Positions 18,512-63,846 of a stretch of DNA of 64,000 bases are shown piece by piece. The stretch's first letter is position 1. Each line of letters starts with the position of its first letter. The position numbers and the translations under genes are program-made. The DNA lies in IMG/VR virus record IMGVR_UViG_3300005445_000001, positions 1 to 64,000 of that record. One strand, given 5' to 3'. Source of the stretch: a virus. Taxonomy: Duplodnaviria; Caudoviricetes. The notes beneath the pieces were generated by a model, which saw nothing but the letters and a program-made list of their open reading frames with translations, did no database searches and was not told the origin of the DNA.

Positions 18512-19429
18512 ATGCTGATGGCACGTCTACACGGTCTTGGAACGGCCATATCGATCTTCCCAACCGGGGCCAACAGCCAGTTTCCAATCACTACGCTCCC
18601 TACCGGTGGAGGTGGTGGCGCTGGTTGGACGACAACGACACCGACGCAAAACGTGACGAGCTGGCAGTTGCCGCCGCAGTGCCCGACCGGTCAGGTGTGG
18701 GATCCGGCGAGCTCGAAGTGCGTGCAGTCTCAACCGTGCCTCCAGACGCGCGCATGCCCGACTGGTTCGACGTGGGACTGCAACAAGATGGATTGCGTAG
18801 ACACGCGGATGTGTCCGTTGTGTCCGGCCGGGATGACGATGGGTCCGCCGCCCGGACCGTGCTGTGTGCCGATGCCGGCGTGCTCGTCATGCGACGGTGG
18901 CATGATGGTCTGCGGCAACAATCCGCAGCCCGGACAAACGTGCTCGTGCAAGGTGAATGGTTGGCAGATGCAGTGCATCGTTCCACCGCCTGATACGAGC
19001 AGCGGAGGTGGTGGCGGCGGCGGAGGGGGATGCTTTCAGACGCACGCGTGCACAGGCGGCACGCATTGGGACTGCGCGATCGGGGACTGTGTTGCCGACG
19101 TTATCGTGTCTCCTCCACCCCCACCCCCAACTGATGGTGGCGGCGGCGGCGGAGGAGGTGGCGGCTTCGTTCTCGACCCTAACGGCTTCACCTGCCTATC
19201 GACGAGTCTACTCTCCAACGGCTTGTGCCCAGGCTCCTCGAGCTCGCAGCCGACCGACAGTGGTGGAGGAACGTTGCCGCCCGCTGGGCCCGGCGTGGTC
19301 GTGACCTCCGCGCCTCCTGTTCCTGTGATTGCTGATGCCGGATTCAAATGGCCGTGGTGGGCTCCGTATGCTGGGCTCGCCGCTGCCGCCGGTATCGTCT
19401 TGGGATTCGTCCTGCACGCACGAAAGTAG
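18512..19429 (+). CDS. Cys/Gly/Pro-rich C-terminally anchored putative virion protein
   Basis: N-terminal LHGLG; repeated CPxG..W..C modules; Gly/Pro linkers; C-terminal TM then HARK. Confidence 0.75.
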   Translation: MLMARLHGLGTAISIFPTGANSQFPITTLPTGGGGGAGWTTTTPTQNVTSWQLPPQCPTGQVWDPASSKCVQSQPCLQTRACPTGSTWDCNKMDCVDTRMCPLCPAGMTMGPPPGPCCVPMPACSSCDGGMMVCGNNPQPGQTCSCKVNGWQMQCIVPPPDTSSGGGGGGGGGCFQTHACTGGTHWDCAIGDCVADVIVSPPPPPPTDGGGGGGGGGGFVLDPNGFTCLSTSLLSNGLCPGSSSSQPTDSGGGTLPPAGPGVVVTSAPPVPVIADAGFKWPWWAPYAGLAAAAGIVLGFVLHARK

Positions 19430-19435
19430 GTCTTC

Positions 19436-19801
19436 ATGCTGTTCGCTACCTCTACAGGTCTGGATCCAACCATCATCGATCCGCACGCGTTCGATCCCGA
19501 TGCGTGGGGAGCTCAATCGCCGTACGACACGCAGCCAGCGGTCGCGTCGGAGTGGGGAACCAACATCGATCAGTCTGGACTGCTCACGCCGGGCGGCGTT
19601 CCGATGATCGATCCCGTGCCCAAGCCGCCGACGCCGATCGTCGGTCCGCCGCCCGCGGGCCCCGCAGCGGTTCCGGTGCCACCACCGATGCCGATGCCGA
19701 TGGTCGCGATCAGCACCGGAATGCCGTGGTGGTTGCCGATCGGTGGGCTTGCAGCCGTCGCGGGCGTCGTGGGGTTGCTCGTGTGGCGGTCACACCGGTG
19801 A
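19436..19801 (+). CDS. Pro-rich C-terminally anchored membrane protein
   Basis: PWWLPIGGLAAVAGVVGLLVWRSHR tail. Confidence 0.75.
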   Translation: MLFATSTGLDPTIIDPHAFDPDAWGAQSPYDTQPAVASEWGTNIDQSGLLTPGGVPMIDPVPKPPTPIVGPPPAGPAAVPVPPPMPMPMVAISTGMPWWLPIGGLAAVAGVVGLLVWRSHR

Positions 19802-20064
19802 GCGGCGAGCGCACCTACGTGGCTCCGCAGCCACCATCGCCGGGGCGCATCGTGCTCTACTTTTTTCGTGGACCAGATCAGACGGTCCGCAACCGTCCGG
19901 CGATCGTCACCTCGATCGTCGATGTTGACATGATCAACCTTCACGTCTTCTTCGAGCCCGGTGATCAGGTCAACGATCCTTACGCGATGAGCGTCTCAGC
20001 TCACGCCGAAGGCCCTAATGGGCCTTTCCATGCGCACACGTGGTCGTGGCCACCAAGGGTGTGA
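19798..20064 (+). CDS. Conserved phage-type small beta protein
   Basis: PSPGRIVLY..PAIVT..INLHVF..WSWPPRV; GTGA overlap. Confidence 0.6.
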   Translation: MSGERTYVAPQPPSPGRIVLYFFRGPDQTVRNRPAIVTSIVDVDMINLHVFFEPGDQVNDPYAMSVSAHAEGPNGPFHAHTWSWPPRV

Positions 20065-20067
20065 GAG

Positions 20068-20634
20068 TTGGCCAAGTCGTTCGCATCCGATTCAGTCACC
20101 ATCGGATCGCCCAAAATCGTTCACGGCTCAGATCTTCCTATCCTTGGGGCAGGAATCTCAGCACCGATCGGATCACTCTATATCTGCGATGCGGATGGAA
20201 CACATTGGGCCAAGGCCAAGGGCGGAAACAATATTTGGTCTCCACTCGGCGCAACAGCAGACGCAAACAACGGAGACACTGTCACGTTGGTAGCCGGAAC
20301 GCCCGTAGTGAGCGTAGCTGGTATGTTTCGACGCGCCGACGCATCGTCATCTAGCCTATCAACGGTGACCGGTCTAGTCATTTCAGATGCTGACCCAACG
20401 TTGCCAATGCAGATTATGCCAACAGGATCTCTTGAGCTCCTCCCCGAACAATGGGACGTAGTCACTGGAGATACTGGAGGACTGATCCCGAGCGCTGATT
20501 ACTACTTGGACGCAATTCTCGGAAGGATCACCACAACACCGCAGACCTTGCCAGGCCGATCGGTGGTGAACATTGGCCACGCTGTTTACCCAGAGTTGAT
20601 GATCATCGCCATCTCACGGCCGATTCTGCTTTAG
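20068..20634 (+). CDS. Putative spike/cement protein
   Basis: Shares QWD-V-G-TGGL...YYLD...G motif and C-terminal ILL with 20663-21139. Confidence 0.65.
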   Translation: MAKSFASDSVTIGSPKIVHGSDLPILGAGISAPIGSLYICDADGTHWAKAKGGNNIWSPLGATADANNGDTVTLVAGTPVVSVAGMFRRADASSSSLSTVTGLVISDADPTLPMQIMPTGSLELLPEQWDVVTGDTGGLIPSADYYLDAILGRITTTPQTLPGRSVVNIGHAVYPELMIIAISRPILL

Positions 20635-20662
20635 CAGAAGCTTCGGGTGTACACTTTAGGAC

Positions 20663-21139
20663 ATGGCCGTACGCAAACCTCTCGTCATCGTCAACGGACA
20701 AATCCAGCAACTCCAGTCCGGTGACACGATCTCCGATCAGGACACGGAGTTCAACCAGGTAAACGATGAGGCGACCTCGATTGTTTGCGGTACCGTCGTC
20801 TACAACGATGCCGCAGGTGGCGTGAAGAAGGCCCAAGCGAACGCGGCAGCGACCGCAAAGCCGGTCGGTCTTGTCGCTCAAGTCCCGAGCATCGCGAACG
20901 GCGTCGCCGGCGCCATCTCCGAGCAAGGCATCTTGACGCTCACCACAGCGCAGTGGGATGCGGTTGCCGGCACGACCGGCGGGCTCGCGTTCAACACGAA
21001 GTACTACCTCGATCCGGCTACTGCTGGAAAGCTGACCTCGGTGGCACCGACGACCGTTGGTCAGTACGTCGTCGAGCTCGGCCAGGCTCTATCGACGACC
21101 GATTTCAAGATCAACATCCAGACGTCGGTTCTCCTCTAA
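20663..21139 (+). CDS. Putative spike/cement protein
   Basis: Paralog of upstream gene; TTAGG RBS. Confidence 0.7.
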   Translation: MAVRKPLVIVNGQIQQLQSGDTISDQDTEFNQVNDEATSIVCGTVVYNDAAGGVKKAQANAAATAKPVGLVAQVPSIANGVAGAISEQGILTLTTAQWDAVAGTTGGLAFNTKYYLDPATAGKLTSVAPTTVGQYVVELGQALSTTDFKINIQTSVLL

Positions 21140-21354
21140 TGGCAACCCGGCTTCCTATCGTCGTCGCAACAGGTCAGCTCGAACAGCGACAAGCTGGTGA
21201 CAGCATCGACTGCGGAGTCGCGGTCGGATCGTACGCGCCCGGTAGCTTCACGCTCGCGGACGGCCAGTACGCACGCATGGTCAAGGAGCTTCGGCTCGTC
21301 GGCGCCGATCGTGCGACGCTTGCGGGCGACTCGCGCCTCGTGATCGAGGATTGA
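21139..21354 (+). CDS. Small structural protein
   Basis: TAATG overlap; N-terminus MATRLPIVVATGQLEQRQAGDSI parallels MAVRKPLVIVNGQIQQLQSGDTI. Confidence 0.65.
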   Translation: MATRLPIVVATGQLEQRQAGDSIDCGVAVGSYAPGSFTLADGQYARMVKELRLVGADRATLAGDSRLVIED

Positions 21355-21355
21355 C

Positions 21356-21991
21356 ATGGCCGACATTCTCCTCGACAACCAAACCGTCCCGACGGCGCCG
21401 GCTGCGGGCAAGGCGATCTTGTTCGTCGAGACGGGCGGCAAGCGTTTCAGCGTCAAGAATGATGCTGGCGCGATCGCCACGCTCGGTGGCGCGATCCGCA
21501 ACTGGAACACCGCAGACGTCGTCGCTAACGCGGCCGACACGTACATTACTGGCTCGAATCTTGTTGTACCAACCGGAGAGACCCTGCAAGTTGGAACGGT
21601 CTTCCGTTGGAAGATGTGGATGACGAAGACCGCAGCGGGTGTTGCTACGCCAACGTGGATCGTCCGCATCGGAACGCTCGGCACCATAGCAGACGCGGCG
21701 ATCTTGACGTTCACGGGACCTGTTCAAACCGCAGCTATCGACGCGGGGTTTGTCGAGATCATGGCTGTCCTGCGCAACGTGGGTGCTGCAGGCATTCTCG
21801 CTGGTGGACTAGCACTCACGCACAACTTGGGGACCACAGGGTTTGCAAACAGCAACACCCCAACGTTGCAGGTGACCTCATCAGGGTTTGTTACGACGAC
21901 GGCCGGTCTCATTGTCGGCCTCTCCGTGAATCCCGGTGCTGCAGGCGTCTGGACTCATCAGGTTGTGTCAGCCGAGATGCTAAATATGTAG
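21356..21991 (+). CDS. Putative fibre/receptor-binding protein
   Basis: Thr/Ala/Gly-rich beta composition; PTAPAAGKAILFV N-terminus; closes structural cluster. Confidence 0.55.
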   Translation: MADILLDNQTVPTAPAAGKAILFVETGGKRFSVKNDAGAIATLGGAIRNWNTADVVANAADTYITGSNLVVPTGETLQVGTVFRWKMWMTKTAAGVATPTWIVRIGTLGTIADAAILTFTGPVQTAAIDAGFVEIMAVLRNVGAAGILAGGLALTHNLGTTGFANSNTPTLQVTSSGFVTTTAGLIVGLSVNPGAAGVWTHQVVSAEMLNM

Positions 21992-22454
21992 CTACGAGAA
22001 AAGTCTCCTCAGGGCTTGATACGATGGCTAGGTGACGGACGGTAACGAGATCTGGATCTTTCACTTCGGCCAAATGATCTTCGTCGTCGGGAACGAGCGG
22101 ATCGGAATCGGCCTCCAAGTAGCAGCGAAACAAGGCGACACCTCACCCGAGGTTCTCCATCGCCGACGTCTAGCGCGTGCCTCTTACTACCGACGTTGGC
22201 GAGCTCAGAACCAAAAGAGGGCTGCGTGAGACAGTGATGGGCCCCGTATTCGAACCGATGTTCTTTGTCGAACTGTACTGTTGTGGTCGAGACGACGGCT
22301 ACTTTGGTCCAGTAACATGGAGCGAGGCTGACTCGTTTCGCGAGGACTATTGCACAGGTCCCGGTGTTGGTCCCAGCGGTCACGATCGAGTCGGAATCAT
22401 CATCGCGGATACAACAGGATCGATCTGGCCCGTGCCGATCTGGAGGTACAAGCG

Positions 22455-22727: not shown

Positions 22728-22894
22728 AGCGATTGATCTTCGTCTTGCTCGCTGCGTGTACTCGATGGGTGCCTGTGGTCGTTCCTCCACCACCCACAAC
22801 CTACGAAGTAGTTCGCGTCATCGAGATCGACCTGATTGAAGGTGAAGATCTGATCGAGGCGTTCCGCGAGGTATTCTTTCTATGCTTGGTCTGA
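22724..22894 (+). CDS. Small lipoprotein (56 aa, not in ORF track)
   Basis: MKRLIFVLLAAC lipobox; ATGA overlap. Confidence 0.55.
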   Translation: MKRLIFVLLAACTRWVPVVVPPPPTTYEVVRVIEIDLIEGEDLIEAFREVFFLCLV

Positions 22895-23085: not shown

Positions 23086-23104
23086 CCGTGGTAGAATCGT
23101 TCGC

Positions 23105-23797
23105 ATGAACGCGCGAGGCGAGCGAATCCTGATATTCGGAGATTCTCTCAGCCATCCAGGCCCAGATAACGGCCCAGAAGCATTCGAGATTACCCAAGAC
23201 TCGAACCGTGTGAGCTCGGCGCCCGGCGATCTACTTGGTTCGCTCCTACTCGAGCAAGGAGCCGAGGCTGTGAGGCTCGACGCGCGCGTAGGACGCTCAG
23301 CATGGAACTTTTGGGGCCGAGAGTCAGCGAATGACCTCATCGCAGCTGACGCTGCCTGGGGGCCTACCAAGGTCGTGGTGATGCTCGGGACGAACGACAT
23401 CGGGCTCCAAGGCGACGGCGAGCGGCAAGCGATGCAAGCGATCAAAGACGCCTACGAGGCGATGGGCGCCGAAGTGTGGGCGATCGGGCCGTTCACGTAC
23501 ACCGGTCAAGGCGGACACCTCAACCCGGGCGCCGAAGACGTCGCCTCGATGATGAGCGACGTGTTCGGTTCACGGTTCATCGACGGCCGACCACTCTCGG
23601 TGAACGTGGATCGCGCTCGTGATGGCATCCACTTTCAGCCAACCTCCGCGATGCAGACGGCGTACAACCTCGCCGACGCGCTCATCTCGAGCTCGTCGAG
23701 GCCGCTCTGGCAGACCGTCTTGATCGGCGGCGCATTGATCGGTCTGCTCATCGCGGGCGGAACGTGGTGGAAGAAACATCGAGCTCTCCGCGCTTGA
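23105..23797 (+). CDS. SGNH/GDSL hydrolase with C-terminal membrane anchor
   Basis: IFGDSL, VGRS, MLGTND, DGIH; C-terminal TM then WWKKHR. Confidence 0.85.
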   Translation: MNARGERILIFGDSLSHPGPDNGPEAFEITQDSNRVSSAPGDLLGSLLLEQGAEAVRLDARVGRSAWNFWGRESANDLIAADAAWGPTKVVVMLGTNDIGLQGDGERQAMQAIKDAYEAMGAEVWAIGPFTYTGQGGHLNPGAEDVASMMSDVFGSRFIDGRPLSVNVDRARDGIHFQPTSAMQTAYNLADALISSSSRPLWQTVLIGGALIGLLIAGGTWWKKHRALRA

Positions 23798-23812
23798 TCG
23801 TATGATCGCTAG

Positions 23813-25704: not shown

Positions 25705-25892
25705 CGATAGCCTGCGACTTTCTTCGCGTGCGCGATCTCTCGGCCTGCACGCTGGCAGTAGCCGTGCCGCGCAGAATCAGCGGCGAGCCGTAGAACGTGA
25801 TCGAAGAGCGGACGGAACCGCTTGAGCGGCTTGTGCGAGCGCTTCACCGCTGCGATCTTGGCGTCGATCGCTGAGAGGTTGCAGGCCTTCAT
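25701..25892 (-). CDS. Small basic protein
   Basis: GGAG RBS; ATGA overlap. Confidence 0.55.
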   Translation of the reverse strand: MKACNLSAIDAKIAAVKRSHKPLKRFRPLFDHVLRLAADSARHGYCQRAGREIAHAKKVAGYR

Positions 25893-26110
25893 CGGCGTCT
25901 CCTACGACGTCGACGCGAGCCAGAGAGTGCGCCGTAGCTGCGTCCACGGCGACGAGCTCGGCCGTCGCAGACTTCGATCGGCGTGATGCGCGAGCCACGA
26001 TAGCGACTCTGCAGCGCGCGCGCGGCGCTTCGGCTCGTGAGTTGACCGAGCCGCGTGGTCGCCACACCGGGAACCGAGAGCGTGACCTCGTATTCGGTCC
26101 GGCAAGACAC
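25889..26110 (-). CDS. Arg-rich protein ending ALSGSRRRRRRRR
   Basis: Poly-Arg tail after LSG. Confidence 0.6.
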   Translation of the reverse strand: MSCRTEYEVTLSVPGVATTRLGQLTSRSAARALQSRYRGSRITPIEVCDGRARRRGRSYGALSGSRRRRRRRR

Positions 26111-26113: not shown

Positions 26114-26785
26114 TTACCGCCGCTTCTTCTTGCCGCCGAGCGCGCGACTCGCGAGGTAGACGCCGATCCCGAGCCCGCCGATCAGGAGGAGCGGGTTGCC
26201 GGTGATCGTGTCCATGATGCCGCCGAGGCCGGAACCGTGAAGGTTCGGGAACGACGGCAACGGCACGTTGCGCGCGACGGTCGTGGTGGGCCACGGAGCG
26301 CAGACCGCACCGGGCGGACACGACGTGAACCGATAGCCAGGCGGCGGCGGACGCGTCGGAAGCTGCGTCGTCAGCACTGGACCGATCGGATACTCGGCGA
26401 TCGGCACGCCGAGCTGAGCGCCGGAGAGGAACTTGGCGTGCATCGTCTGCTCCTGCAGGTGATGCAGCGTACTGCCCCAGGTCATCGGGTGGCCGAGCGC
26501 GCTAGAACGGATGATCGACTGCCCAGCGGCGGGTGGAGCGATCGTCGAGTGACGAGCCGTCTCGTAGCCTAGAACGTCACCCCATGTCGGAGGCGAGCTC
26601 TGGTCGTACGAGAACATGCTGCCGAGGCCGGAGAGGAACTTCGCCGGGGCGCTGATGACGGCGCCGAGCAAGCCCTTGACGCCGCCCGACGCTTGTCGCG
26701 CGTGGCGGCGCATCATCCAGCGGAATGGTGGGCGCGTCATGCCAATCTGAGGACCTGACAGATCCATGATGTAACTTAGTGACAT
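26114..26785 (-). CDS. C-terminally anchored putative virion protein
   Basis: FLSGLG, LHGSGLGG motifs; TM then GGKKKRR. Confidence 0.75.
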   Translation of the reverse strand: MSLSYIMDLSGPQIGMTRPPFRWMMRRHARQASGGVKGLLGAVISAPAKFLSGLGSMFSYDQSSPPTWGDVLGYETARHSTIAPPAAGQSIIRSSALGHPMTWGSTLHHLQEQTMHAKFLSGAQLGVPIAEYPIGPVLTTQLPTRPPPPGYRFTSCPPGAVCAPWPTTTVARNVPLPSFPNLHGSGLGGIMDTITGNPLLLIGGLGIGVYLASRALGGKKKRR

Positions 26786-26788: not shown

Positions 26789-27097
26789 TCACCTTTTCCT
26801 TCGACGGTGACCGGACAAGCCGAGTTTGCGCTTGATCCCACCTCCGAATTTTTGCCACCCGAAGTAGCCGAGCGCCGTCGAACCGGCGAGCACTGCAAGC
26901 GTCATCATCCAACCCGGGATCGAGTCGGTGATGTCGCCGAGCGCGCCGGTGAGGCTCTTCGCCTGGGTCGGGACGACCTTCCAGTACCACGAGCCGTACG
27001 TGCCGGGGATCCCCGCGTACTGCACGCGCTCGACGCGGTTCGGATCGAACGGGTCGAAGAAGGGCTGTTGTTCGTAGGTTTTGATATACGTGCTCAC
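26789..27097 (-). CDS. Small membrane protein with basic tail
   Basis: GGAGG RBS before GTG 27097; LTGALGD; TM; LGLSGHRRRKR. Confidence 0.7.
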   Translation of the reverse strand: MSTYIKTYEQQPFFDPFDPNRVERVQYAGIPGTYGSWYWKVVPTQAKSLTGALGDITDSIPGWMMTLAVLAGSTALGYFGWQKFGGGIKRKLGLSGHRRRKR

Positions 27098-35414: not shown

Positions 35415-35921
35415 TTAGGCGGCTCGCGGGAAGTTGAGGCGCGCAAACTCTCCGAACAACTCCATCGCTGCGCGATCATAAGCTAGTGCTGCTTCCTCTC
35501 GCGTATCGTAGGAACCTAAGTTGATCGATCGCCTCCTCGACTTGATCCATGCGCCCCACCGTCTACCACGTTTGGAGACGCCTTTGAATCCTGAAGTGTT
35601 GTGACTCGGCCTAGCGGCATTTTGAAGTTGTTGCTCACGTGTCGCTAACCGCAAATTCGAGCGTCTGCAGTCCAACGGATTCCCGTTCCTGTGATCAACT
35701 TCTTGTGTTGGATAGGCTCCCAAGATCGCGCGCATCACTTCGCGATGTAGATACAACGTAGACCTCTTCCATCTTCGACGACGAACGTAGAATTTCCCAT
35801 GCGTCGACTTCTTGACCTCCCAGTCAATTACAGCAAGGGGCTGATCCTCATCGTCGATCAAAGCAACGACAAGGTGTGATCCGTGCGCGATCTTGATCTC
35901 GATCACGCTGCCCGCGCCCAA
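35415..35921 (-). CDS. HNH-AP2 homing endonuclease
   Basis: [25 protein letters not shown]; AP2-like SGFKGV..WGAWI..LGSY..AALAYD. Confidence 0.9.
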
Positions 35922-38900
35922 GTTTGAGAGATTCGTGATTCGATCGGGAATGGAATCCTATGTCCGTCCCTTTCATACTCTTGAGGAAAGACTCGATCGA
36001 GGTCAGCTTGAAACTTTTCCGCATCATCTTCCCAAACCTCAAATACTGAAGCGTCGTGGACTTGGACGATTGGAAAAGCTTGCTTGTAGCAAGCACACAC
36101 CTCTATCATTCTCTCCATTCCTGTATTCATGATCGCCGCTCCGGTGGCTTGGGGGACAATGTTCAAAGCTTCGTTAGCATCGACATTTCCAAGAGGCCAC
36201 CAGCGCGTGCGACCGTCGACGAAATCGTAGAGTTTGAATGGATACGTGGAGGCCTTGAGCACCGTCTCGCGTTGCCAACGCACGACGCCTGCCATCCGGC
36301 GCATGAGCAAACCAACCGCGCGCTCGACATCAGCAAGCTTGAGATCGTAGCCATCCTTGAGGAGCGTCTTCCACAACGTGTCGATCGACCCACCATAAAA
36401 CGCGCCGTACTCGACATTTTTTGTGACCGAGCGAGCCCGTTTCTGTTCACCCTTGACGAGCTGATCCCAGTTCGTGAAGATCACCTTGGCGCATTCGGTG
36501 TGAACATCCTTGCCGGTCGCAAAGACGTCGAGTAGGAATGGATCGCCAGAGATGATCGCGATGATTCTCGCCTCTAGCTGAGCAAGATCGAAGCTCACAA
36601 ACTTGCGCCCGTGCCGTGCCACAAACTGTCGTTTGCTCGTCGGACGCTCAATCGCTGCGTATGCCTCCCCCTTATCGATGCATCTCTGAATGTCCTCGGG
36701 CTTGACCTTGTAGAACCCTCGAGACACCAAACCCCTTGCGAACAGGTTGGCATCCGTTTCACCCTCAAGTCGAACCGTCTTGATGAGCTCCTTGAGTGGA
36801 TTGGAGACAACCGGATCACGACTTGCCCAGCGGCCAGAGATCTTGTGAGTAGACCAAATGCTATGGCATCGATCGTTCTCGTCGCAGAATCCATACTGAA
36901 TGACGTCACCGCTAGCGGTGTACCGATCGAACATCGGCCAGATGAACGTGCCTAGCGCTTTGTCTTGCTCGCGGTACTTGAGAATGTTCCGAACGATCGG
37001 AAGGTGGGCCAGCGACTCGAGGATCTCTTTCTTCGTCGAGACCTCACCGGTTTCGGTCTTCTGATGGAGGCTCACGCCCATCGCTAGGAGCAACGCCGCA
37101 ATGTGCTTGCCGGCATTGATGTTCCACTTCCAGTCGGACTCGGTCTTCATCTCGCGCAAGCGAGCGTTGTATCGCTCCTCGTAGTCATCGGGATCGTCTT
37201 TGCGCTGCTTGCTCGCTTGCTGAATCGCAAGATGGTGGAAGATCGCTTCACGGATCTTGGGATCGGCTGCGGCATCATCTACCTTGCGACGTTCCTCGGC
37301 AGCGATCTTCGAGAACGAGTTGAGGAGCTCGGTGTTGACCTCACGACTCACCGGCATCCCATCGAGGTGCATCTGGCTCGCGAGCATCGCCATCTTGCGA
37401 TCGCGCTCGTAGACACGCTCGACGTTGTTTTTCTTCACCATGATCTCGAGCGGTGCACGTAGGGCTCGCGTGGCGAAGGTATCAAGCGCGTTGTACGTCG
37501 TCAGCTTTTCGGGCGTCTCCTCAGCATTCCTAAATTCCGACTTCCATGGTTGGATGCAAAAGAACTGCGTGGCGACGTTCTGCAACCGATGGCTCACCCC
37601 AGGAAACGCTGCGTGGTGAGCAAGAAGCGTGTCCGCGAAGCTAGTATCGTTGATGATGAAGCCGTACGCTCGAAACACCGTGTAGTCATAGAGCCCGTTG
37701 TGGAACGTCAATCGGACCTTGCCGAACAGCAGTTGCATCAAGCTGTGCGTCCACGCCGGTAGCAGATCCCACATCACAGAGACGGCACGATGCTCGGTCG
37801 CGAGCCCGAGCGCACGAATGCGAGCGACGTAGGCCATCAGCGCGTGATGACGATCCGGATCCTCGACGTAGGTCTCGAGGTCGATCGCGAGCTCGCCTTC
37901 CTTGAGCGCTTGCTCGAACATCTCGAGGAACAGCCGCAGCGCGCGATCGGCGTCGGTGAATTCGATCTCAATGTTGGGATGGAGCCTAAGGTCATCGCCT
38001 TTAGCGAGCCGATCGACCTTGAGCGCGTCGTACATCAAGTTGACGTAGGCAAGGTCTGGTGAGTGGGTGCCACCTATCGTCGCGCCACCTCCACGCAGTA
38101 GCGCCGCAGGGTGGATTGCGGGTATAAGAGGCCTAGGGCCAGAGCCATCCACATCGACGTCAAACGTCGCTGACATGATGTCGGTGATCTTGATCGGCTT
38201 CTTCTTTTTAGGCTTGACCTTGCCGCCGAGCTTCTTCTTGAGCTCTTTCTCCTTGAGTTTCTCGGCGTAGACGTCTGGTGCATCGGCCTTCACCTTTCGT
38301 TCGATCGCGGCTCGATCCTTCGCCATCTGCGCGATGATGTAGCGCTGGCTCGGCTTCCTACGATGAGCCTTCCAAATCTCATCGCGGATCTGTTTCTCTC
38401 GATAGAGAAGAACCTTCTTGAGGAGCTGCTTTTCGATTTTCTCGATCGCCTTTTTCTGGCGCGCAAGGAGCTTTGCCTCGATGCGCTGACGATCCTTCTG
38501 TCCACGCTTCATCTTCTTCGGCGCATCGGGCGGATCGATCGCGTCGAGCACGGCCTTAGGAATCACCGACCGCGCTGCGACCGCACCGAGCGTCAAGATC
38601 GGCTTGCCGGGCCATTGCGCGAGCTCGCGTCTGAGCCTCTCCTTGCAGGCCTCAGCCGCTTTCTCTCGTAGATGCTCAGCCGATCCATACGGGGGCATGC
38701 AAAGAGTACTGTTAAGGATGGCGACCTGTTCTCGAGGTCGACCGATCTTCGCGAGCAGCTTGTTGACGACTTGCCCAGACTGGCCGACGAATGGCCGTTT
38801 GAGCATGATTTCTGTTCGGCCCGGGCCTTCGCCAATTAGAATCCACTTCGGATTCTCAGGGAACTCAGAGAACACAGGCTTGGTAGGAACCCCGCACGTA

Positions 38901-38992
38901 GAGAACGGACATTCGTCGCACTTGGCTCCATCAGCCGTGCCACGTAGAACCGGAAGCGCAATGCGCTCCGGTGCCGTTTGTGCTGTAGCCAT
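35903..38992 (-). CDS. polA: Family A DNA polymerase with N-terminal uracil-DNA glycosylase and 3'-5' exonuclease domains
   Basis: UDG: [20 protein letters not shown]; exo: IDLET, HNGLYD, YNALD; pol: [22 protein letters not shown]. Confidence 0.95.
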
Positions 38993-47827: not shown

Positions 47828-48034
47828 ATGGGAGCGCATCTCATCAATGGGGAGTTTCAGAGTGACAAGTATCCAACCACGCCCCGCGGCAAGGTTCCGC
47901 TCAGCGTGAAGGACCCAACCGCCCAAGATCTTCTCTGGGAGTATGCTCAACGTCGACGATCGGTCGATGCTGAGTTCTCGGCAGATCTCGAGCTAGCGCT
48001 CATCAATGCCGGCTACGAGCCATCATTTGGCTAG
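47828..48034 (+). CDS. Hypothetical protein
   Basis: Short ORF convergent with 48031-48426. Confidence 0.55.
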   Translation: MGAHLINGEFQSDKYPTTPRGKVPLSVKDPTAQDLLWEYAQRRRSVDAEFSADLELALINAGYEPSFG

Positions 48035-48426
48035 TGCCGACCGAAGAAAAACCACCACACACCGAGACCAACCGCAGCGACCGCGACCCAACCAAGCGGC
48101 GAAAGGCCCACGACTGCTTGTGGTGGTAGCGACACGGGCGTCTGATCGATCGGTGGAGGTGGCGGCATCGGAGGTGGAGGCGTCGAGCCGTCCTGTCCGG
48201 TCTGGTAGTCACCACCCTGATCGACTGCGGGTGGACGGAGCGGATCCATCACGATCGTCGTGCCGTCGGTGTTGATCTGCGCACCGGGAACCGCTACAGC
48301 CCGCACCGACGTAGGGAACGTGGGCGTCTGCGGCGTAAAGCCGGGTAGCGAGGCGAATGAGTACGAGCTCGTACCCGCGGGTGGTACTAGGTCCGGGGAA
48401 AGTCCAAGGCCTCGAAATACGAGCAT
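48031..48426 (-). CDS. Pro-rich C-terminally anchored membrane protein
   Basis: Starts MLVFRGLG; TM then GRH. Confidence 0.75.
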   Translation of the reverse strand: MLVFRGLGLSPDLVPPAGTSSYSFASLPGFTPQTPTFPTSVRAVAVPGAQINTDGTTIVMDPLRPPAVDQGGDYQTGQDGSTPPPPMPPPPPIDQTPVSLPPQAVVGLSPLGWVAVAAVGLGVWWFFFGRH

Positions 48427-51845: not shown

Positions 51846-52034
51846 TCACCTTGCGTGTTCGAGGATCAGCACGATGCCCAAGACCACAACCAAGCCGCCA
51901 AGAATCTTCAGCGGCGTCGGGATCAACGGAGCTGTGTCATCGCCGAGGCCCGAGAACATGAGCCGATTTGGCCATGCTGGATCGCTCTTCACGACCGGAG
52001 ACCAAACCGGAAGTCTGTTGCTCGTTCGAAACAT
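51846..52034 (-). CDS. Small C-terminally anchored membrane protein
   Basis: MFSGLGDD then TM and EHAR. Confidence 0.65.
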   Translation of the reverse strand: MFRTSNRLPVWSPVVKSDPAWPNRLMFSGLGDDTAPLIPTPLKILGGLVVVLGIVLILEHAR

Positions 52035-54379: not shown

Positions 54380-56479
54380 GTGACCAAAGCCCCGACGAAC
54401 ACCCAAGCAATGCCGTTCGATCCGGCCAAATTCGATACACTCAACGAGCCACTCATCGTACGCGTTGAGAAACTCCGTGGAAACACGCGGTCACCTGTTC
54501 CTCTCCCTTCAACGGAAGAGGGCGGAGTAGGTGGAGTTGGATGGTCGAAGGATGACGTTCGAGGCCTCGAACAGTGGCTCGTAACGGCGTGGGCGGGTGG
54601 CGGGCTCTACGAGATCGTGGTTACTGACTCGTCACAGCCGCAGTCGGTTACGATGCGCTGGCGCTCGTTCTACAGCCCGTCCGAGTATCCAGAGAAGACC
54701 CCTCCGCCGCTTGCTGGCGCTGCGACTCAGCTCCCACAACCCCAACCTCAGGTGCGACAACCTATGAGCTCAGCCTTCCCCAACGGCCTCCCCGTATTTC
54801 CCGGTGTGGGTCAGTTCCCGGCTCCGCAGCCGAATTATCAGCAACCTTCTTACTACTATCCGACGCCACCCCCTACGGGCTACGGGTACGGGATGCAGTC
54901 CAACCAACCAGGGTTCGACCCATCGCGCACGGCGATGGAACAAACGATCCGAGACATGCAAGCGCAGATGGCCCGCGAGCGCGAGACTGCGCTCCAACAG
55001 AAGTACGACGCTGCGATCGCGGCGCAGCGCGAGAGCACACGCGCCGAGACTGCGCGGCTCGAGTCTCGATTCAGCGAGCTCGCTGCAATCGTCACGCAGC
55101 TAGCTCAGGGGATCAAAGACGGCCCAGCGAACCGCATCGACCCTCAGATCGAAGCGCTCAAGGAGAACAATCGTCAGCTCGCTGCGAACGCAGAAGCCGA
55201 ACGGCGCGAGCGTGAGGCAGAGCGTCGTGAGCGTGAGATGAAAGATCTGATCACGCAGATGGCGGCAAACTCACAGCGTCAGATCGAGATGATGCAACAG
55301 CAGTTCACGCAGATGCAACAGCAGATGGTGACGCAGGGTCGTCAACACGATCCACTGATCGCGATGTTCCAAGAGCAACAGCGAATGCAGATCGAAGTCG
55401 CCAAGGAGCAAGCACGAGCTCAACAGGCGAGCGTAGAGAAATTGATCCCGTTCATGATGAACCCACGCGAGGCAGTGGCGCTCGCACGTGAGAGCTCGAA
55501 CGGCATCGACGTGATCACGAACCAGGTCTCGCGCGCGTTCGGCGGCGTGATCGAGCTCCAAGGAAAGGTGATGGAGAACCTCTCACAGATGCAGGGTGGA
55601 GATACGCCGGTGACGTTGATCAAGGATGGCATCGAGCGCGCGACCGATATGGCTCAGCGTTGGATGGCGGGCAAGACGAAAGAAGCGATTGCGACGCAGC
55701 AAGCGCAAGCACAGGTCGCCCATGCTCAGGCGCAAGCGGTTGCTGCTCAGGCGATGTACGCAGCACAGGCTGCTCAAGCAGAGCAACAGCCGCAACCTCC
55801 GCCGCGTGTCGTGCACGCGCCTCCAGCGCCACCGGTTCAACAGCAACTGTCTGGTCCGAACGTGTCTTCGCCGGCACAGAAGAGTGGCGCGACGCAATTC
55901 GAGTTTGCTCCTAACTCACAGGGCTCAGGCGGCTCCAACGGAACCGCTCAACCGATCCCACAACAAGCTGCACCTGTAGCTTCCACGCCCGTTCCTGTTC
56001 CAGCTGGGCCACCGAAACGGCACGGTCGCACCGACGAGGAATGGTTCGGTCCACTCATGCCCGAGGTCTTGAAGATGCGAACGGGCGTGGCGCGCGCGAT
56101 CGAAAGTGCCACGATGAAGCCGCCCAGGCTCGACAAGGCGACACACAAGATCGATGGCATCGAGCCGGATCAGGTTGCGAACTACATCTTGCAGGCCGCA
56201 ATGATCGTGATGCAGCAACGCATGCCAATTCCGGTGATGGTCGAGCTCTTCATGCAACAACAGTTCGACATGATGATGGACGTGCTGTTGCCTGATGCAC
56301 CATTCCCGTACAAGGCTGAGGTGATCCAGTCGCTCGTGGCACAGATGCAAGGCAAGGAACCAGATGAGCCAGACGAGCCCGAAGAAGATGACGACGACGA
56401 AGAAAGTGACGAGAACGACGGCGACGATCGCAAGCTCGAAGAGCGAACGACGAAAGCGCGTCCGTCGGCCCAAGCGTGA
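54380..56479 (+). CDS. Large Pro/Gln-rich coiled-coil protein
   Basis: 699 aa; Pro-rich linkers flank a long Gln/Met/Glu heptad region; acidic tail. Confidence 0.8.
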   Translation: MTKAPTNTQAMPFDPAKFDTLNEPLIVRVEKLRGNTRSPVPLPSTEEGGVGGVGWSKDDVRGLEQWLVTAWAGGGLYEIVVTDSSQPQSVTMRWRSFYSPSEYPEKTPPPLAGAATQLPQPQPQVRQPMSSAFPNGLPVFPGVGQFPAPQPNYQQPSYYYPTPPPTGYGYGMQSNQPGFDPSRTAMEQTIRDMQAQMARERETALQQKYDAAIAAQRESTRAETARLESRFSELAAIVTQLAQGIKDGPANRIDPQIEALKENNRQLAANAEAERREREAERREREMKDLITQMAANSQRQIEMMQQQFTQMQQQMVTQGRQHDPLIAMFQEQQRMQIEVAKEQARAQQASVEKLIPFMMNPREAVALARESSNGIDVITNQVSRAFGGVIELQGKVMENLSQMQGGDTPVTLIKDGIERATDMAQRWMAGKTKEAIATQQAQAQVAHAQAQAVAAQAMYAAQAAQAEQQPQPPPRVVHAPPAPPVQQQLSGPNVSSPAQKSGATQFEFAPNSQGSGGSNGTAQPIPQQAAPVASTPVPVPAGPPKRHGRTDEEWFGPLMPEVLKMRTGVARAIESATMKPPRLDKATHKIDGIEPDQVANYILQAAMIVMQQRMPIPVMVELFMQQQFDMMMDVLLPDAPFPYKAEVIQSLVAQMQGKEPDEPDEPEEDDDDEESDENDGDDRKLEERTTKARPSAQA

Positions 56480-56755: not shown

Positions 56756-57052
56756 GTGAAGACGATCTTTTGGATCGCGATCTTCTTGACGTGTGCTGGG
56801 ATCAGTTGGGTCGTGTTCGATGACTTCGGCTTTCACTACGTCATCGCTGCGGGTGTTGTCGCGAGCGCATACGTCTTGATTTGTATCGATGGACACCCCA
56901 AGGATCAGCTAACGCCTAAGGAGCCAGATAAACCAAGGAACGGTTTCTTTGTGTTCCTCGTGTCGCTATTGATCGGCCTCTTGTGGCCGGCATTGCCGAT
57001 CCTCATCGCCGCGGGGCGCGTGAAGACCGATGATACCGACGGGGCCGCTTGA
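56756..57052 (+). CDS. Membrane protein
   Basis: GTGA overlap; three hydrophobic segments. Confidence 0.55.
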   Translation: MKTIFWIAIFLTCAGISWVVFDDFGFHYVIAAGVVASAYVLICIDGHPKDQLTPKEPDKPRNGFFVFLVSLLIGLLWPALPILIAAGRVKTDDTDGAA

Positions 57053-57323
57053 GGCCTGCAAGCCCGGTGTGACGAGCATCGAAGATGCGCAGCAACACGA
57101 ACACGCTCATGAGGCCGCTTGCGATCGCGGCGCCCATAAATGCACGTTTAGCATCGATTCCTACTACCATCATGGCGGGCGCGATCAGAATCGTACGCGC
57201 CACTGTCCAACCCGCGAGCCGCAACCCTGAGCCCTTGTCCTTTTCCAACACGTCTGCCGCCGTGCGGTAGGTAGGAAGCGCGAACTGAGCCATGACCGAA
57301 GAGAGTATACCAAACCCAACCAA
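57003..57323 (-). CDS. Membrane protein with basic tail
   Basis: TM segments then GLAGLKRPRRYHRSSRAPRR. Confidence 0.65.
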   Translation of the reverse strand: MVGFGILSSVMAQFALPTYRTAADVLEKDKGSGLRLAGWTVARTILIAPAMMVVGIDAKRAFMGAAIASGLMSVFVLLRIFDARHTGLAGLKRPRRYHRSSRAPRR

Positions 57324-59395: not shown

Positions 59396-59910
59396 TTTGA
59401 CGCCTCCAAGTAGTCGGCCGCTTTACGCAAGACAGCTGGACTTTCACTCGCGTGACCGATCATGACATTGCAATAATGGCACAAAACGCCACGCAGTTTG
59501 CCGGTCGAATGATCATGGTCGACGTGTCGCGCCAATCTAGAGTCTTGAACAGCAACATCGTCGAAGCTGGTCTTGCAAACCAGGCATCTCTGATTTTGGA
59601 GATGCAACATGTTCAGATAGCTAACAACGGATATTCCATACTCAATTTTTAGTCTTCGAAATTTTCGGTAGGCCCTAACGTGATCTGGATTATTGGCCTG
59701 CCATTTCTTGGTTCCTCGTAGCAAGTAGCCTCGATATCTGGGATCTACAGCTCTTCTCTCTCTGTAAATTCTAACGAGGTCAGCCTTCTTTTCTGAGCTT
59801 AGAGCAGCATATCGAGCCCGTTCTCGCTTGTTGCGCTCGGCTCTAGCCTCAGGAGTTTGGTTTCTCCTTCGCTCGTATTCAGCTCTTCGATCCCGATCTC
59901 GAATCGGCAC
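59392..59910 (-). CDS. Endonuclease VII-like homing endonuclease
   Basis: QNQRCLVC, HVDHDHSTGKLRGVLCHYCNVMIG; AT-richer. Confidence 0.88.
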   Translation of the reverse strand: MPIRDRDRRAEYERRRNQTPEARAERNKRERARYAALSSEKKADLVRIYRERRAVDPRYRGYLLRGTKKWQANNPDHVRAYRKFRRLKIEYGISVVSYLNMLHLQNQRCLVCKTSFDDVAVQDSRLARHVDHDHSTGKLRGVLCHYCNVMIGHASESPAVLRKAADYLEASK

Positions 59911-60054
59911 TCCTAGAGCTTATCACGAGGCTCGGAGGATTAAGGCGACGCGCTCTGATTCACACGGCAGAAAGGAATCGAAATGCCCGTCGTGGAATCT
60001 CTCCACGCACCACAACGCGCGTCGTGATCCAACACTACCACGCGATGCGGAGAC

Positions 60055-60360
60055 CTATCGACGATGCTTGTAGCCGGCGGCAAAAATGCTCACTAGAATT
60101 GCCGCCGTCGCAACGCCCCCGAGCATTAGACCCAACACTGTGTAGTCAAGTCCCGACTGCCCAAATCCAGTGCCACGCAACTTTGATGCGGTCGCGTACG
60201 GATCCCAAAATCGGCCGACCGATGGTGGACCGATCTCGGCGGGAAAAGAAACTGGAGGGAACGGTGGTGTGATGTACCAACCCGGCTCGTCGGGTGGGCA
60301 AAACGGGAACGGCGCGCCGAGTTGCATCGTGTACGTTCCGGGCGAGACACCGACGGTCAT
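60055..60360 (-). CDS. Small C-terminally anchored membrane protein
   Basis: LRGTGFG; TM then YKHRR. Confidence 0.7.
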   Translation of the reverse strand: MTVGVSPGTYTMQLGAPFPFCPPDEPGWYITPPFPPVSFPAEIGPPSVGRFWDPYATASKLRGTGFGQSGLDYTVLGLMLGGVATAAILVSIFAAGYKHRR

Positions 60361-60629
60361 CGACAGCTCCTGCGCGAGCCGGAGACGCCCGCTGAGCTCC
60401 GCTTGGTGCGCTTGAATGCAGCGAGCGCGATGAGGAGAGCTCCACCAGCAAGCGCCCCAAGGCCAAAGATGTAAGGCTGGATCACTTCCTGAGCCCCTTC
60501 TTCGGCACCTTCTTTGGCCGTCTGCTTGATGAAGTTCTTGAAGTCTTCGAGCTTCTGATCGACCGTTCCGCCGCCGGGAATGATCGCCAGAATCGATCGG
60601 AGATCTGAGATCGCGTCACGGAGCGCCAT
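60357..60629 (-). CDS. Small membrane protein with basic tail
   Basis: TM then KRTKRSSAGVSGSRRSCR. Confidence 0.7.
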   Translation of the reverse strand: MALRDAISDLRSILAIIPGGGTVDQKLEDFKNFIKQTAKEGAEEGAQEVIQPYIFGLGALAGGALLIALAAFKRTKRSSAGVSGSRRSCR

Positions 60630-60644
60630 GATTAGATCTTAACG

Positions 60645-60830
60645 CTATTTGCGTCCCTTGTACCAGCGATAGCCGAAGAAGGCTCCGGCTCCGATGAGGC
60701 CAAGGCCCCACCAAGTCATGTACCAAGGCTCATTGAGGCTCGCGATCGTGACGTTTGGTGGAAGCGCATTCGCGGGCGGAATGATCTGGCCAGGAGGGAT
60801 CGGGGTATCACGAAGACCGACGAACATCAT
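60645..60830 (-). CDS. Small C-terminally anchored membrane protein
   Basis: GGAGG RBS; PWYMTWW, TM, YRWYKGRK. Confidence 0.7.
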   Translation of the reverse strand: MMFVGLRDTPIPPGQIIPPANALPPNVTIASLNEPWYMTWWGLGLIGAGAFFGYRWYKGRK

Positions 60831-60842
60831 GGGATCCTCCGA

Positions 60843-61277
60843 TCACTTGAGCATCATGTAAGCGAGCACCGCTCCGCCACCGAGGACGACGATCATGAGC
60901 GGATTCTGGTACCACGGCTTGGGCGGCATCATCGGCATCGGCGTGAGAGGCACGCACGCGCCTGCTTGGTTAGCGACCGCACCAGGCGGGCACGTTGGAC
61001 TCTGCGGCGTGAGGAAGTGCTTGAGGAACTCACCGATCGCCGCGCCGCTACCAGCGCCGACGTTCGTCCACGTCGATGAGCTCTGTTGCTGTTGCTGTCC
61101 ACCACCTCCGCCACCCGAGCTCGAGTCGGGAATGGCGTTGGGACAGATCGCCATGTTGTTACCGGGGTAGCAACAGATCGCGTCGTCACCGGTGCCGATC
61201 TGCTGATATGGGCACGTGTCGCCGGCCCAATTTGCGAAACCAAAACCGGAAGCGGGCGCGCCGCGGAATACGAGCAT
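60843..61277 (-). CDS. Cys-rich C-terminally anchored membrane protein
   Basis: Starts MLVFRG; CPPG module; PWYQNP then TM. Confidence 0.75.
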   Translation of the reverse strand: MLVFRGAPASGFGFANWAGDTCPYQQIGTGDDAICCYPGNNMAICPNAIPDSSSGGGGGGQQQQQSSSTWTNVGAGSGAAIGEFLKHFLTPQSPTCPPGAVANQAGACVPLTPMPMMPPKPWYQNPLMIVVLGGGAVLAYMMLK

Positions 61278-61305
61278 GTCTCTACTCTATCACGAGCTTG
61301 GAATC

Positions 61306-62478
61306 TTAGGGTGAAGCCGCCGGGGCGGGCTTCGGCTTGTCGGATCCACTGAACAGTAGGAACGTCAACACACCCCCGATGATCAAGATCGGCAACCACG
61401 GAATGCTCGTCGGTGCCGGTGCGCACATCTTCGTCGCCATGTTCATCACGTAGCCGGGCGGGCACTGTGGTAGTTGTCCAGCCTGGCATGCTTGCATGAG
61501 CGATTGAGGGTTTTGTCCCTTGGCTGCTCCGCCCGCGATCACCGAGAGGCCGAGCGCGAGCGCTTGGGCGGCCTCGGGATCTTTGAGTAGCTCGCAAGCC
61601 ATCCCGCCGATCGCTGCGGCGACATCCTTCGCGAGCTCGAGAATGGTCGCGACGATGAACTCACCAGCGTTCTCGATGAACCATCCAATACCACTCAACG
61701 TGAACCCAGAGCAGCCTTGGTCGTCTTTGATGAATTTGACATTGTCGAGATAGCCCTTGACCTCAGCTGGATCCATCTTGCGCGCGCGCATGAAGAGGCC
61801 ATGTGCGACCTTGCGACTTCCCGACGGCAACGTGCCGACTTTGTCTTTGACCCATGCAGGCGTGTATGTATCTGCAGTGAGCTCAGTGTGATCGTCCTTC
61901 GTGACGAGGAAGATGCCCCAAACATCTTGCGTGCCTGGGTACATGAAGATGTAGAGTGGAATTCCCGGATAGGCCGTCTGCCTTCCAATAGGGTCTGTTG
62001 ACGTGACCGGATCTTCGATCAGATTGAGAAGCGCCGGAACGGGGTGTCCACCATCGACGGTGGGAGGATTCAACCCAGGAACCGATCCCTGGTAAGAGAC
62101 GCCTGAGAACCGGCCCCATCGTGTGCCGCGCTTGCAGGTGAATGCATTGGAGTCGTAGCCCTCACCCTTGATCGTCTCCCAAAACGTGCTCGCGGCGTCG
62201 ATCGTGTCGGCGAGCCACGAGTATTGTGGCGGAACCGATGTGATGGGAACGTCGCCACCGTTGACCGGAAACGTCAACGCCAACGGAAGTTGAACCGTTC
62301 CGCTCTTGCGCGTTCCGGTCACACCAAAGGCGCCGCCGATCTGTAGCGCAGCCTCACTAGCCCCGGGCGAGTAGGGCCACGGCAATTGCGTGACCGTCAA
62401 TTGTCCGTTGGCACCGGCTTGGTACGCCTGTTGGTTCTGAAGGTTGATACCGATGATGGAGCCGGCCCAAGTAGCCAT
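61306..62478 (-). CDS. Large C-terminally anchored putative virion protein
   Basis: CPPGYVMNMATKMC module before PWLPILIIGGVLTFLLF. Confidence 0.75.
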   Translation of the reverse strand: MATWAGSIIGINLQNQQAYQAGANGQLTVTQLPWPYSPGASEAALQIGGAFGVTGTRKSGTVQLPLALTFPVNGGDVPITSVPPQYSWLADTIDAASTFWETIKGEGYDSNAFTCKRGTRWGRFSGVSYQGSVPGLNPPTVDGGHPVPALLNLIEDPVTSTDPIGRQTAYPGIPLYIFMYPGTQDVWGIFLVTKDDHTELTADTYTPAWVKDKVGTLPSGSRKVAHGLFMRARKMDPAEVKGYLDNVKFIKDDQGCSGFTLSGIGWFIENAGEFIVATILELAKDVAAAIGGMACELLKDPEAAQALALGLSVIAGGAAKGQNPQSLMQACQAGQLPQCPPGYVMNMATKMCAPAPTSIPWLPILIIGGVLTFLLFSGSDKPKPAPAASP

Positions 62479-62492
62479 GCCGCTAGGGTAAC

Positions 62493-63230
62493 ATGACTTG
62501 TGTTAACCTACTGATCGTGTCCGAAGACCGATTTGCAAAGATCTCTGCGTTCATCGGGATCGGGTTGGTCCTCGTCGGTGGGGTCATGCTCTGGCAACAG
62601 CGACGAGCCACGACCAGTTTCAACGGTCTGGGACGCCCGCGCTATCGTCGAGTCGAAGGAATGGCCGAAGAGGCCCCCGTGATCGATGGGTTCTCGGATG
62701 GCAACATGCACACCGAGATCCGCGCGAGCGATGAAATGCCGATCGAGCAACGGCTAGCGACCATCCAGCGCAAGATCTACGAAGGGACCAAAGACCCCGA
62801 GATGCGCAAGCTAGCGCTCGCGATCACCTCGCAGTGCCCCGAGCGCGATGGGCTCTGCGAGGCCAAGGCGATCTACAAAGCGGTCAAGAAACGGGTCCGC
62901 TACTCTGGTGACATCGCGCCGATCAAGCACCCCAATGGTCAGGTCGAAGGGATCGATCTCTACCAGAGCGCGCGCCGCACGTGGGAGTTCAAAGCTGGGG
63001 ACTGTGACGACACGGCGATCCTGATCAGCACCCTGCTTGCGCACAACGGGATCACTCCACGTTTGCGCGTGACCGCCGAGGATAAACATAGCGATGACGG
63101 TCACATCTACGTGATTGCGCTCCTGCCCAAGTTCAATCCGTCCTACTCTGTCGCGCTCGATGCGACCTTGCCCGGAAACAAGTTCAACGTGGAAGCGCCG
63201 GCGGCGCGCGTGACGGACTTCGACGCATGA
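62493..63230 (+). CDS. Transglutaminase-like cysteine protease with N-terminal anchor
   Basis: GDCDD (Cys), GHIYV (His), ALDAT (Asp); N-terminal TM then FNGLGRPRYRR. Confidence 0.85.
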   Translation: MTCVNLLIVSEDRFAKISAFIGIGLVLVGGVMLWQQRRATTSFNGLGRPRYRRVEGMAEEAPVIDGFSDGNMHTEIRASDEMPIEQRLATIQRKIYEGTKDPEMRKLALAITSQCPERDGLCEAKAIYKAVKKRVRYSGDIAPIKHPNGQVEGIDLYQSARRTWEFKAGDCDDTAILISTLLAHNGITPRLRVTAEDKHSDDGHIYVIALLPKFNPSYSVALDATLPGNKFNVEAPAARVTDFDA

Positions 63231-63436
63231 TGGACAGCCTCTACAACTTCGTGAATCCGAACTATGCCGCAGCGCTTACACTCAAGACGCAGTGTGCTGC
63301 GTCGCCGGTTAGCTGTGTCGAGATCAACAAGGCGTACGATCTCGAGCTCGACATGGCAGTGACTCGCCTGCGCTGGATCGGGTTGGGTCTTTTAGTCGTA
63401 GGTGGAATCGCCATTTTCCGACGAGGAAGAGCATGA
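63227..63436 (+). CDS. Small membrane protein
   Basis: C-terminal TM then RRGRA. Confidence 0.65.
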   Translation: MMDSLYNFVNPNYAAALTLKTQCAASPVSCVEINKAYDLELDMAVTRLRWIGLGLLVVGGIAIFRRGRA

Positions 63437-63846
63437 AGAAGAAACCCTATCTCACGTTCCTCTCCGGCTTAGGCGATGCCGCCACGATCGATCCTGGCTC
63501 GTTCCTTGCTGCGAATCCGACGCCAACCGCGAGCGACGTCGCACAGTTTCTCGCGAGCGTGCCCAACGCGCAGCGCCCGGAAGCGGCACAAGCACTCGTC
63601 GATGCTGGTGTCGATCCCGACGTTGTGCAACACGGTTTGATGTTCGCGAACACGCGCACCGGGTTGAGTTGGTCGTGGTTCACCGGCACGCTCACCGTCG
63701 CCGCGTCGGCGGCGGCAACGTTTCACGGCTACCGACGAAACAAGTCGGTGTTCTGGGCCTTGGTGTATGGTCTAGGTGCAATGATGTTCCCGATCGCCAC
63801 GACCGCGGTCACGTTGGGTCAAGGCTGGGGAAAGCCGAAGCCATGA
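63433..63846 (+). CDS. Membrane protein
   Basis: N-terminal FLSGLGD; two TM segments. Confidence 0.75.
   Translation: MKKKPYLTFLSGLGDAATIDPGSFLAANPTPTASDVAQFLASVPNAQRPEAAQALVDAGVDPDVVQHGLMFANTRTGLSWSWFTGTLTVAASAAATFHGYRRNKSVFWALVYGLGAMMFPIATTAVTLGQGWGKPKP

Follow-up and report, generated by a model that had tools for sequence, protein, structure and literature searches.

We wanted to know why many otherwise unrelated membrane and basic proteins of one bacterial virus carry the same short glycine motif, and what the cysteine enzyme encoded among them could do with it. The locus was studied in a window of 64,000 nucleotides, bases 1-64000 of the 85,650-bp record IMGVR_UViG_3300005445_000001. 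This window represents three quarters of a complete circular genome, the record being classed as complete and bearing a 90-bp terminal direct repeat. Coordinates with the prefix G000 are positions on the whole 85,650-bp genome, including the region past the window. A sequence-only reading had proposed that the motif, written [LFM]xGxG, is cut by a transglutaminase-like enzyme in an adenovirus-like maturation system. From sequence comparisons, we moderately favour the view that the enzyme is a maturation protease whose site, G-[L/F]-G, doubles as an incorporation tag. All the motifs listed in that reading were found in the open reading frames (ORFs) concerned. The genes are given below, where C-anchored means ending in a transmembrane (TM) anchor and "matrix" refers to the weight matrix described in the next section.

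18512..19429, plus strand: Cys-rich C-anchored protein, N-terminal LHGLG (motif present; matrix)
25889..26110, minus strand: small basic protein whose Arg8 tail is preceded by ALSGS; the gene is probably real, because its stop overlaps the next start
26114..26785, minus strand: C-anchored protein with two GLG sites (aa 53 and 186; matrix)
26789..27097, minus strand: C-anchored protein whose TM is preceded by ALGD and whose Arg tail is preceded by GLSG; its start is likely the ATG at 27097
48031..48426, minus strand: C-anchored protein with the leader MLVFRGLG (matrix)
51846..52034, minus strand: small C-anchored protein with MFSGLGD; a homologue in the related locus L109 has the same site
54380..56479, plus strand: 699-aa Gln-rich protein with an acidic tail, conserved beside the morphogenesis cluster (family of 33), without a Pfam, PHROG or Atlas name; probably coiled-coil, a candidate scaffold
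57003..57323, minus strand: membrane protein with GLAG ahead of its basic tail, which resembles tails in L036 and L044
58862..59395, minus strand: C-anchored protein with two sites (GAGLG and PGFGD), conserved in 29 orthologues
60055..60360, minus strand: conserved C-anchored protein, site directly before the TM (family consensus LRGLG)
60357..60629, minus strand: C-anchored protein, VSGS before a basic tail
60645..60830, minus strand: small C-anchored protein, leader ending in VGLRD (matrix score 12.2)
60843..61277, minus strand: C-anchored protein whose first six residues are those of the 48031 protein, followed by SGFG
62493..63230, plus strand: transglutaminase/LapG-fold cysteine enzyme, candidate maturation protease
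63433..63846, plus strand: conserved membrane protein, N-terminal leader ending in LSGLGD (matrix score 16.3); leader consensus LLGLG in 19 orthologues

The GLRD variant at 60645, PGFGD in the 58862 protein and the sites at G000 64088, 66300, 67053 and 71691 were absent from the sequence-only reading.

The shared motif

To define the motif, genes were called in about 100 related loci, TM helices were masked, and occurrences were counted per family or with redundancy weights. Within-protein shuffles, which keep composition, served as the null. The loose form [LFM]xGxG was mostly noise, with a weak enrichment in anchored proteins (z about 2.2). Contrarily, the strict form [LFM]xG[LF]G was found in 4.5 families of this genome's C-anchored proteins against 0.5 expected, and in 12.2 against 1.5 in those of the relatives, an enrichment of about 8- to 14-fold. 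The claim of a motif shared by particle-type proteins thus holds for the strict form, after correction for composition. In the genome's own non-TM proteins, the strict motif stayed at chance level (2.0 against 1.2). The relatives' non-TM proteins near the enzyme carried it as well (11.7 against 3.6), partly because of the conserved soluble morphogenesis family of G000 66300. With the relatives as its sole training set, a weight matrix flagged 8 of the 22 anchored proteins of this genome (2.15 expected) and 5 of its 81 non-TM proteins (7.1 expected). When 4-mers were searched de novo in the relatives, GLGD (22 families against 5.8), NGLG (16 against 4.8) and RGLG (20 against 7.2) were among the top words, where Arg-rich words ranked as well.

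The motif proved to be narrow. Among hydrophobic G-x-G words, only those with L (89/22) and F (24/9) were enriched, GAG, GVG, GIG and also LAG being flat. LxG[LF]G reached 29.8 against 2.5, while LxG[not L/F]G remained at chance (16.5 against 16.8) and LxGG was depleted (12.9 against 21.7). In the bulk proteins of two high-GC bacterial genomes taken as control, the ratio was 0.8-1.1x; cellular C-anchored controls gave 1.5x (2 hits) and 3.1x (5 hits), GLGD being absent, compared to 14x for viral anchors. The motif was coded by 49 different 9-mers and counted 104.8 in frame against 3.6-25.9 in the other frames. Free variation of the codons and an in-frame signal mean that selection acts on the peptide, and an explanation by a DNA element was rejected.

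The core of this tag is G-[L/F]-[G>S,R], usually with L, F or M two residues upstream, followed by D, A or G. It was found in four settings: at the end of a 6-12-residue N-terminal leader (8x enriched), at most 35 residues ahead of the C-terminal anchor (3.8x), as pairs flanking a basic amphipathic segment (G000 66300), and, as a looser variant that is chiefly L-[AS]-G, just before Arg-rich C-terminal tails (11.7 against 3.0). It forms a conserved island inside the variable linkers of orthologue families, and is also present in soluble proteins and at sites far from TMs. Capsid-type proteins, i.e. those of the jelly-roll shell, are nearly free of it (1/34, 0/22 and 2/22). The layout of C-terminal sorting signals (LPXTG, PEP-CTERM, GlyGly-CTERM), in which the motif is fixed before a C-terminal TM and a basic cluster, does not apply, because the sites are N-terminal, pre-TM, internal or after the TM. 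Distant lineages have variants of the tag: four unrelated genes of L119 start with an identical 10-residue leader ending in LG, and L117 uses GLG, GFG and GMG.

The cysteine enzyme

The enzyme has an N-terminal TM (about aa 17-34), a basic stop, a linker containing FNGLG (aa 43-47, nt 62619-62633) and a catalytic domain. As the sequence-only reading had proposed, it belongs to the transglutaminase-like superfamily: it matched PF01841 (Transglut_core) at 1.6e-6 and 28.8 bits for a cut-off of 23, and its triad C171, H204 and D223, carried on the transglutaminase core fold, is invariant among 120 homologues. PF06035 (LapG/BTLCP, Peptidase_C93) gave 15.2 bits, under its cut-off of 27, and a sequence search of the PDB revealed no genuine relative. 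The structural model is confident (predicted local distance difference test score, pLDDT, 92), and its confidence falls in the linker after the anchor, as for a flexible linker. Its structural matches included BDI_1141 (3kd4; Z 13.2, root-mean-square deviation, rmsd, 2.9, 140 residues aligned), TglA, a Cytophaga putative protease, PeiW/PeiP, factor XIII, TG2/TG3, CPR-C4 and LapG, the last being the top Foldseek match (4u65_E). The nearest characterised folds are mostly hydrolases (LapG, PeiW/PeiP, CPR-C4). The enzyme shares with LapG/BTLCP the fold, the C-H-D order and the acidic residues flanking the Cys, but differs in being viral, N-anchored and encoded among tagged structural genes rather than beside an adhesin system.

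The position of a site between anchor and catalytic domain, noticed in the window, turned out to be general: LG or L[SANF]G was present in the post-anchor linker of 103 of the 109 homologues examined, against 35 expected. At least 251 homologues were found in metagenomes, many on contigs of 75-180 kb, so the system is widespread there. The enzyme gene was found no more than 10 kb from that of the capsid protein in 7 of the 8 distant loci, which extend to about 23% capsid identity. Essential active sites are preferred insertion points of inteins. In three relatives (L106:1489-3174, L093:4844-6022 and L113:4343-5995), an intein was located directly before the catalytic Cys, which is the first residue after it; two of these inteins have LAGLIDADG traces and one is a mini-intein. 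A second invariant Cys pair, C115 and C122 (CPxRDGxC), was also noted in the enzyme; judging from sequence, it is possibly a disulfide or metal site regulating activity.

A homologue exists in the cultured phage SSIP-1, which is tailless and contains a membrane. Its gp34, annotated as a structural protein, was matched to the enzyme by HHalign (98%, E 2.7e-13) with C, H and D aligned. In gp34 the anchor sits at the C-terminus, and here too a GMG site separates it from the catalytic domain. G[ML]G words occur in gp34, ORF36, gp37, ORF52 and gp53; the count of 7 among 30 late proteins, where about 3.7 would be expected, is suggestive, although it was made post hoc. SSIP-1 differs from the present virus by its 44-kb genome, its C-terminal gp34 anchor and a P-loop protein (gp40) in the structural block, and no sequence link was detectable between our capsid-block proteins and gp44-48 or ORF33. 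ORF33 resembles the 699-aa protein in composition and position, with undetectable homology. In our literature searches, which left subscription journals largely uncovered, no protease role was found for gp34.

Possible cleavage, docking or joining at the tag

According to the mechanism that we favour, tagged precursors and the membrane-tethered enzyme would gather at the membrane patch where the capsid forms, the 6-12-residue leaders serving for incorporation in the manner of T4 capsid-targeting sequences. The enzyme would first cut its own linker, then remove leaders, free short anchored peptides, and release basic and amphipathic peptides, whose role would be to prime entry or to condense the 85-kb DNA. 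The cut is predicted to fall either after the second Gly (papain-like, with a hydrophobic P2) or before it (adenain-like). The papain-like register, with L/F at P2, would unify GLG-D, GLR-D and the LSG/LAG tails, while the adenain-like one would fit the LxGLG subset only. A tag seen between catalytic domain and anchor at either end of the enzyme, and pairs flanking basic segments, are as expected of excision sites. Condensation of DNA by basic peptides and anchored basic tails is plausible because a packaging ATPase was not found (see below).

Several observations weigh against this mechanism. By the positive-inside rule, the catalytic domain is predicted to be cytoplasmic, and the N-terminal domains of C-anchored proteins could face the opposite side. 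The 26789 protein and some others carry sites on both sides of one TM, and this is the main difficulty, as it calls for insertion as a hairpin or by a tail anchor, or for membrane sheets that are open while the particle assembles. After-TM GLG was weakly enriched (3.8 against 1.7), and strict G[LFM]G was not enriched in several distant lineages. In L118, tags are present and the enzyme was not found within 10 kb, and no enzyme-lacking relative was confirmed that could serve as a negative control. The fold class also includes transglutaminases, acyltransferases and cell-wall isopeptidases, and cleavage at the tag is a prediction from sequence. A predicted complex of the catalytic domain with the 63433 leader scored 0.01 and counts neither for nor against. 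The capsid locus L102 (CP070815.1, the "chromosome" of a Gemmatimonadota metagenome-assembled genome, MAG), which lacks the enzyme, was rejected as a negative control and gave no host assignment, because a 100-N gap (L102:6227-6327) lies where the enzyme gene would be; the viral segment is probably joined to host genes by a scaffolding artefact.

The motif could instead be an uncut docking or sorting tag binding the capsomer base or the 699-aa scaffold-like protein, the enzyme being tagged merely for packaging and acting on another target, such as host envelope proteins or cell-wall cross-links at entry. The enrichment is strongest at extreme N-termini, where a cut removes few residues, the pre-capsid protein at G000 67053 bears a tail made of hydrophobic-Gly repeats, the L117 enzyme, which has no anchor, still starts with an LG word, and the cell-wall isopeptidases PeiW/PeiP are among the fold neighbours. 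We nevertheless regard docking without cleavage as unlikely, since the tag moves with the anchor, whichever end of the catalytic domain bears it, paired tags flank the basic or amphipathic segments of G000 66300, and the virus encodes a separate lysin. In another explanation, the enzyme would be a transpeptidase or transglutaminase, with the tag as acyl donor and an amine (a new N-terminal Gly, Lys or lipid) as acceptor, building a covalent net of inner membrane proteins. Its superfamily membership and the presence of factor XIII, TG2/TG3 and TglA among its fold matches agree with this, and a cut before the last Gly would leave Gly N-termini, the nucleophile that sortases use. However, the Gln acceptor expected of a true transglutaminase substrate is absent from the tag matrix, QLG being a minor variant (17 against 11), and the acidic residues flanking the Cys resemble those of LapG, the top Foldseek match; acyl transfer therefore appears distinctly unlikely. 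A sortase-like cut-and-join enzyme, which might link the tagged membrane proteins and basic proteins among themselves or to lipid, forming a covalent inner shell that condenses the 85-kb genome without a packaging ATPase, seems quite improbable, and we know of no DNA virus with such an assembly route. Finally, the motif could be independent of the enzyme and reflect a Gly-rich hinge or a preference of small viral membrane proteins at the membrane interface. Tagged proteins are Gly-rich and, on few hits, a slight excess is seen in cellular C-anchored proteins, but the restriction to L and F, the occurrence in soluble proteins and far from TMs, and the gap between 14x in viral anchors and about 1x in bulk cellular proteins largely refute a hinge, which we consider very improbable.

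The protease that we favour was compared with known maturation systems. As in adenovirus, whose pVI, pVII and pX share a hydrophobic-x-Gly site and are a precedent for priming by cleavage of internal proteins (PMC4246237), many internal precursors bear the site, the enzyme is a cysteine enzyme of a jelly-roll virus, shell proteins mostly lack the site, and basic and amphipathic segments are flanked by it. The kinship with adenain (MEROPS C5) that the sequence-only reading had suggested is not supported: the order is C171-H204-D223, whereas adenain uses His54-Glu71-Cys122 (PMC4246237), and the enzyme has a transglutaminase-like fold, a membrane anchor, a bacterial host and a single-jelly-roll capsid. 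Moreover, the site needs G-[L/F]-G, LxGG being depleted and the general (M/I/L)xGxG with free x not enriched. Adenain was not among the structural matches listed for the enzyme, the top ones being transglutaminase-like, an absence that excludes nothing. Prohead proteases of T4 and giant phages cut after Glu. The T4 capsid targeting sequence, the closest parallel to the short N-terminal leaders, is a 10-residue propeptide that loads proteins, is removed and is also a cleavage site (PMC9026906). T4 gp21 and the giant-phage prohead proteases (PMC9026906) resemble the present system in the short shared N-terminal leader on unrelated proteins, ending in a protease site, and in the enzyme carrying its own site; unlike here, with a jelly-roll capsid, a transglutaminase-fold enzyme and membrane-anchored putative substrates, those tailed phages have HK97-fold heads and unrelated, gp21-type proteases. 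By analogy, the system may work like adenovirus or T4 maturation, but it belongs to neither, because catalytic order and consensus differ from adenain, and capsid and enzyme from T4.

In a model set out in a review of jelly-roll viruses, the lineage acquired its maturation protease when it moved to eukaryotic hosts (PMC6260650). If our reading is true, protease-driven maturation arose independently in bacterial single-jelly-roll membrane viruses; no transglutaminase-fold maturation protease was found in the literature searched. The claim is directly testable by N-terminomics, since SSIP-1 is cultured and its enzyme homologue is annotated as a virion protein. A portable tag of 8-10 residues would also offer a means of loading proteins into particles that contain lipid.

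The virus and its other genes

The genome encodes a UDG-PolA fusion, an SNF2 helicase, a DNA methylase, an integrase, a peptidoglycan-binding lysin and a pilin-type gene, and this is therefore a bacterial virus; it appears tailless with a jelly-roll capsid. About 20 of its proteins end in a TM helix and a basic tail, which suggests an internal lipid membrane in the virion.

35903-38992 (window), minus strand: family A DNA polymerase with a fused N-terminal uracil-DNA glycosylase (UDG)-like domain
G000 67788-68498, just beyond the window: highly conserved 236-aa capsid protein (423 homologues)

The model of the 236-aa protein (pLDDT 86) is a single jelly roll. Its top three structural matches were HCIV-1 (Z 7.7, rmsd 4.3, 133 aligned), HHIV-2 (Z 7.6) and SPV1 (Z 7.2), and SPV1 was also the best Foldseek match (E 3e-3). 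Despite middling Z values, this rank order of matches favours a vertical single-jelly-roll capsid protein in the model; an Atlas lead pointed to PM2/PRD1 capsid families. Its conserved 165-aa neighbour (69364-69861) may be a second capsid protein, to judge by synteny and size; HHalign with the first (MCP1) gave 1%. Three tandem genes of similar size with related-looking N- and C-termini were seen at the capsid loci of the distant relatives L117 (10001-12281) and L118 (10001-12205) and are apparently capsid paralogues. The single-jelly-roll capsid protein is shared with Singelaviria/Helvetiavirae (HCIV-1, HHIV-2, P23-77) and the portoglobovirus SPV1, for which no maturation protease is described in the papers searched. 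Unlike Singelaviria/Helvetiavirae, the virus has PolA-based replication and a genome much larger than the 16-30 kb of simulo- and sphaerolipoviruses, and the FtsK-HerA/A32 packaging ATPase of Halopanivirales was not found in the complete genomes G000 and G005 (PF01935 and PF04665 absent). Walker A motifs in the genome were confined to AAA_24 and primase-helicase proteins. A DUF87/HerA-type ORF was present in two incomplete relatives, G006 and G008. The names given by MAG bins (Polyangiales, Actinomycetes, Alphaproteobacteria and others) are binning noise. A DNA polymerase scan revealed no relatives, the literature searches no description of this virus group, and large tailless bacterial viruses of this group are so far undescribed in searchable literature.

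Other genes drew our attention. A GDSL hydrolase (window 23105-23797, plus strand) and a 274-aa protein without a name (G000 74623-75447, minus strand) end in the same aromatic-TM-basic anchor as the structural proteins, which suggests virion-borne enzymes. A thioredoxin-like CxxC protein (G000 72603-72965, L001:9603-9965) lies near the capsid genes in many relatives and, together with the Cys-rich anchored proteins, suggests by analogy a viral disulfide pathway as in poxviruses. The ORF at window 11864-12916 (plus strand) carries a type IV pilin N-methyl motif at aa 185-211, so its true start is probably internal, and its pilin-type product may alter host pili or exclude superinfection. Paralogous beta-rich pairs and long fibre- or spike-like genes (window 2791-3685; G000 76155-82930) are likely receptor-binding parts.

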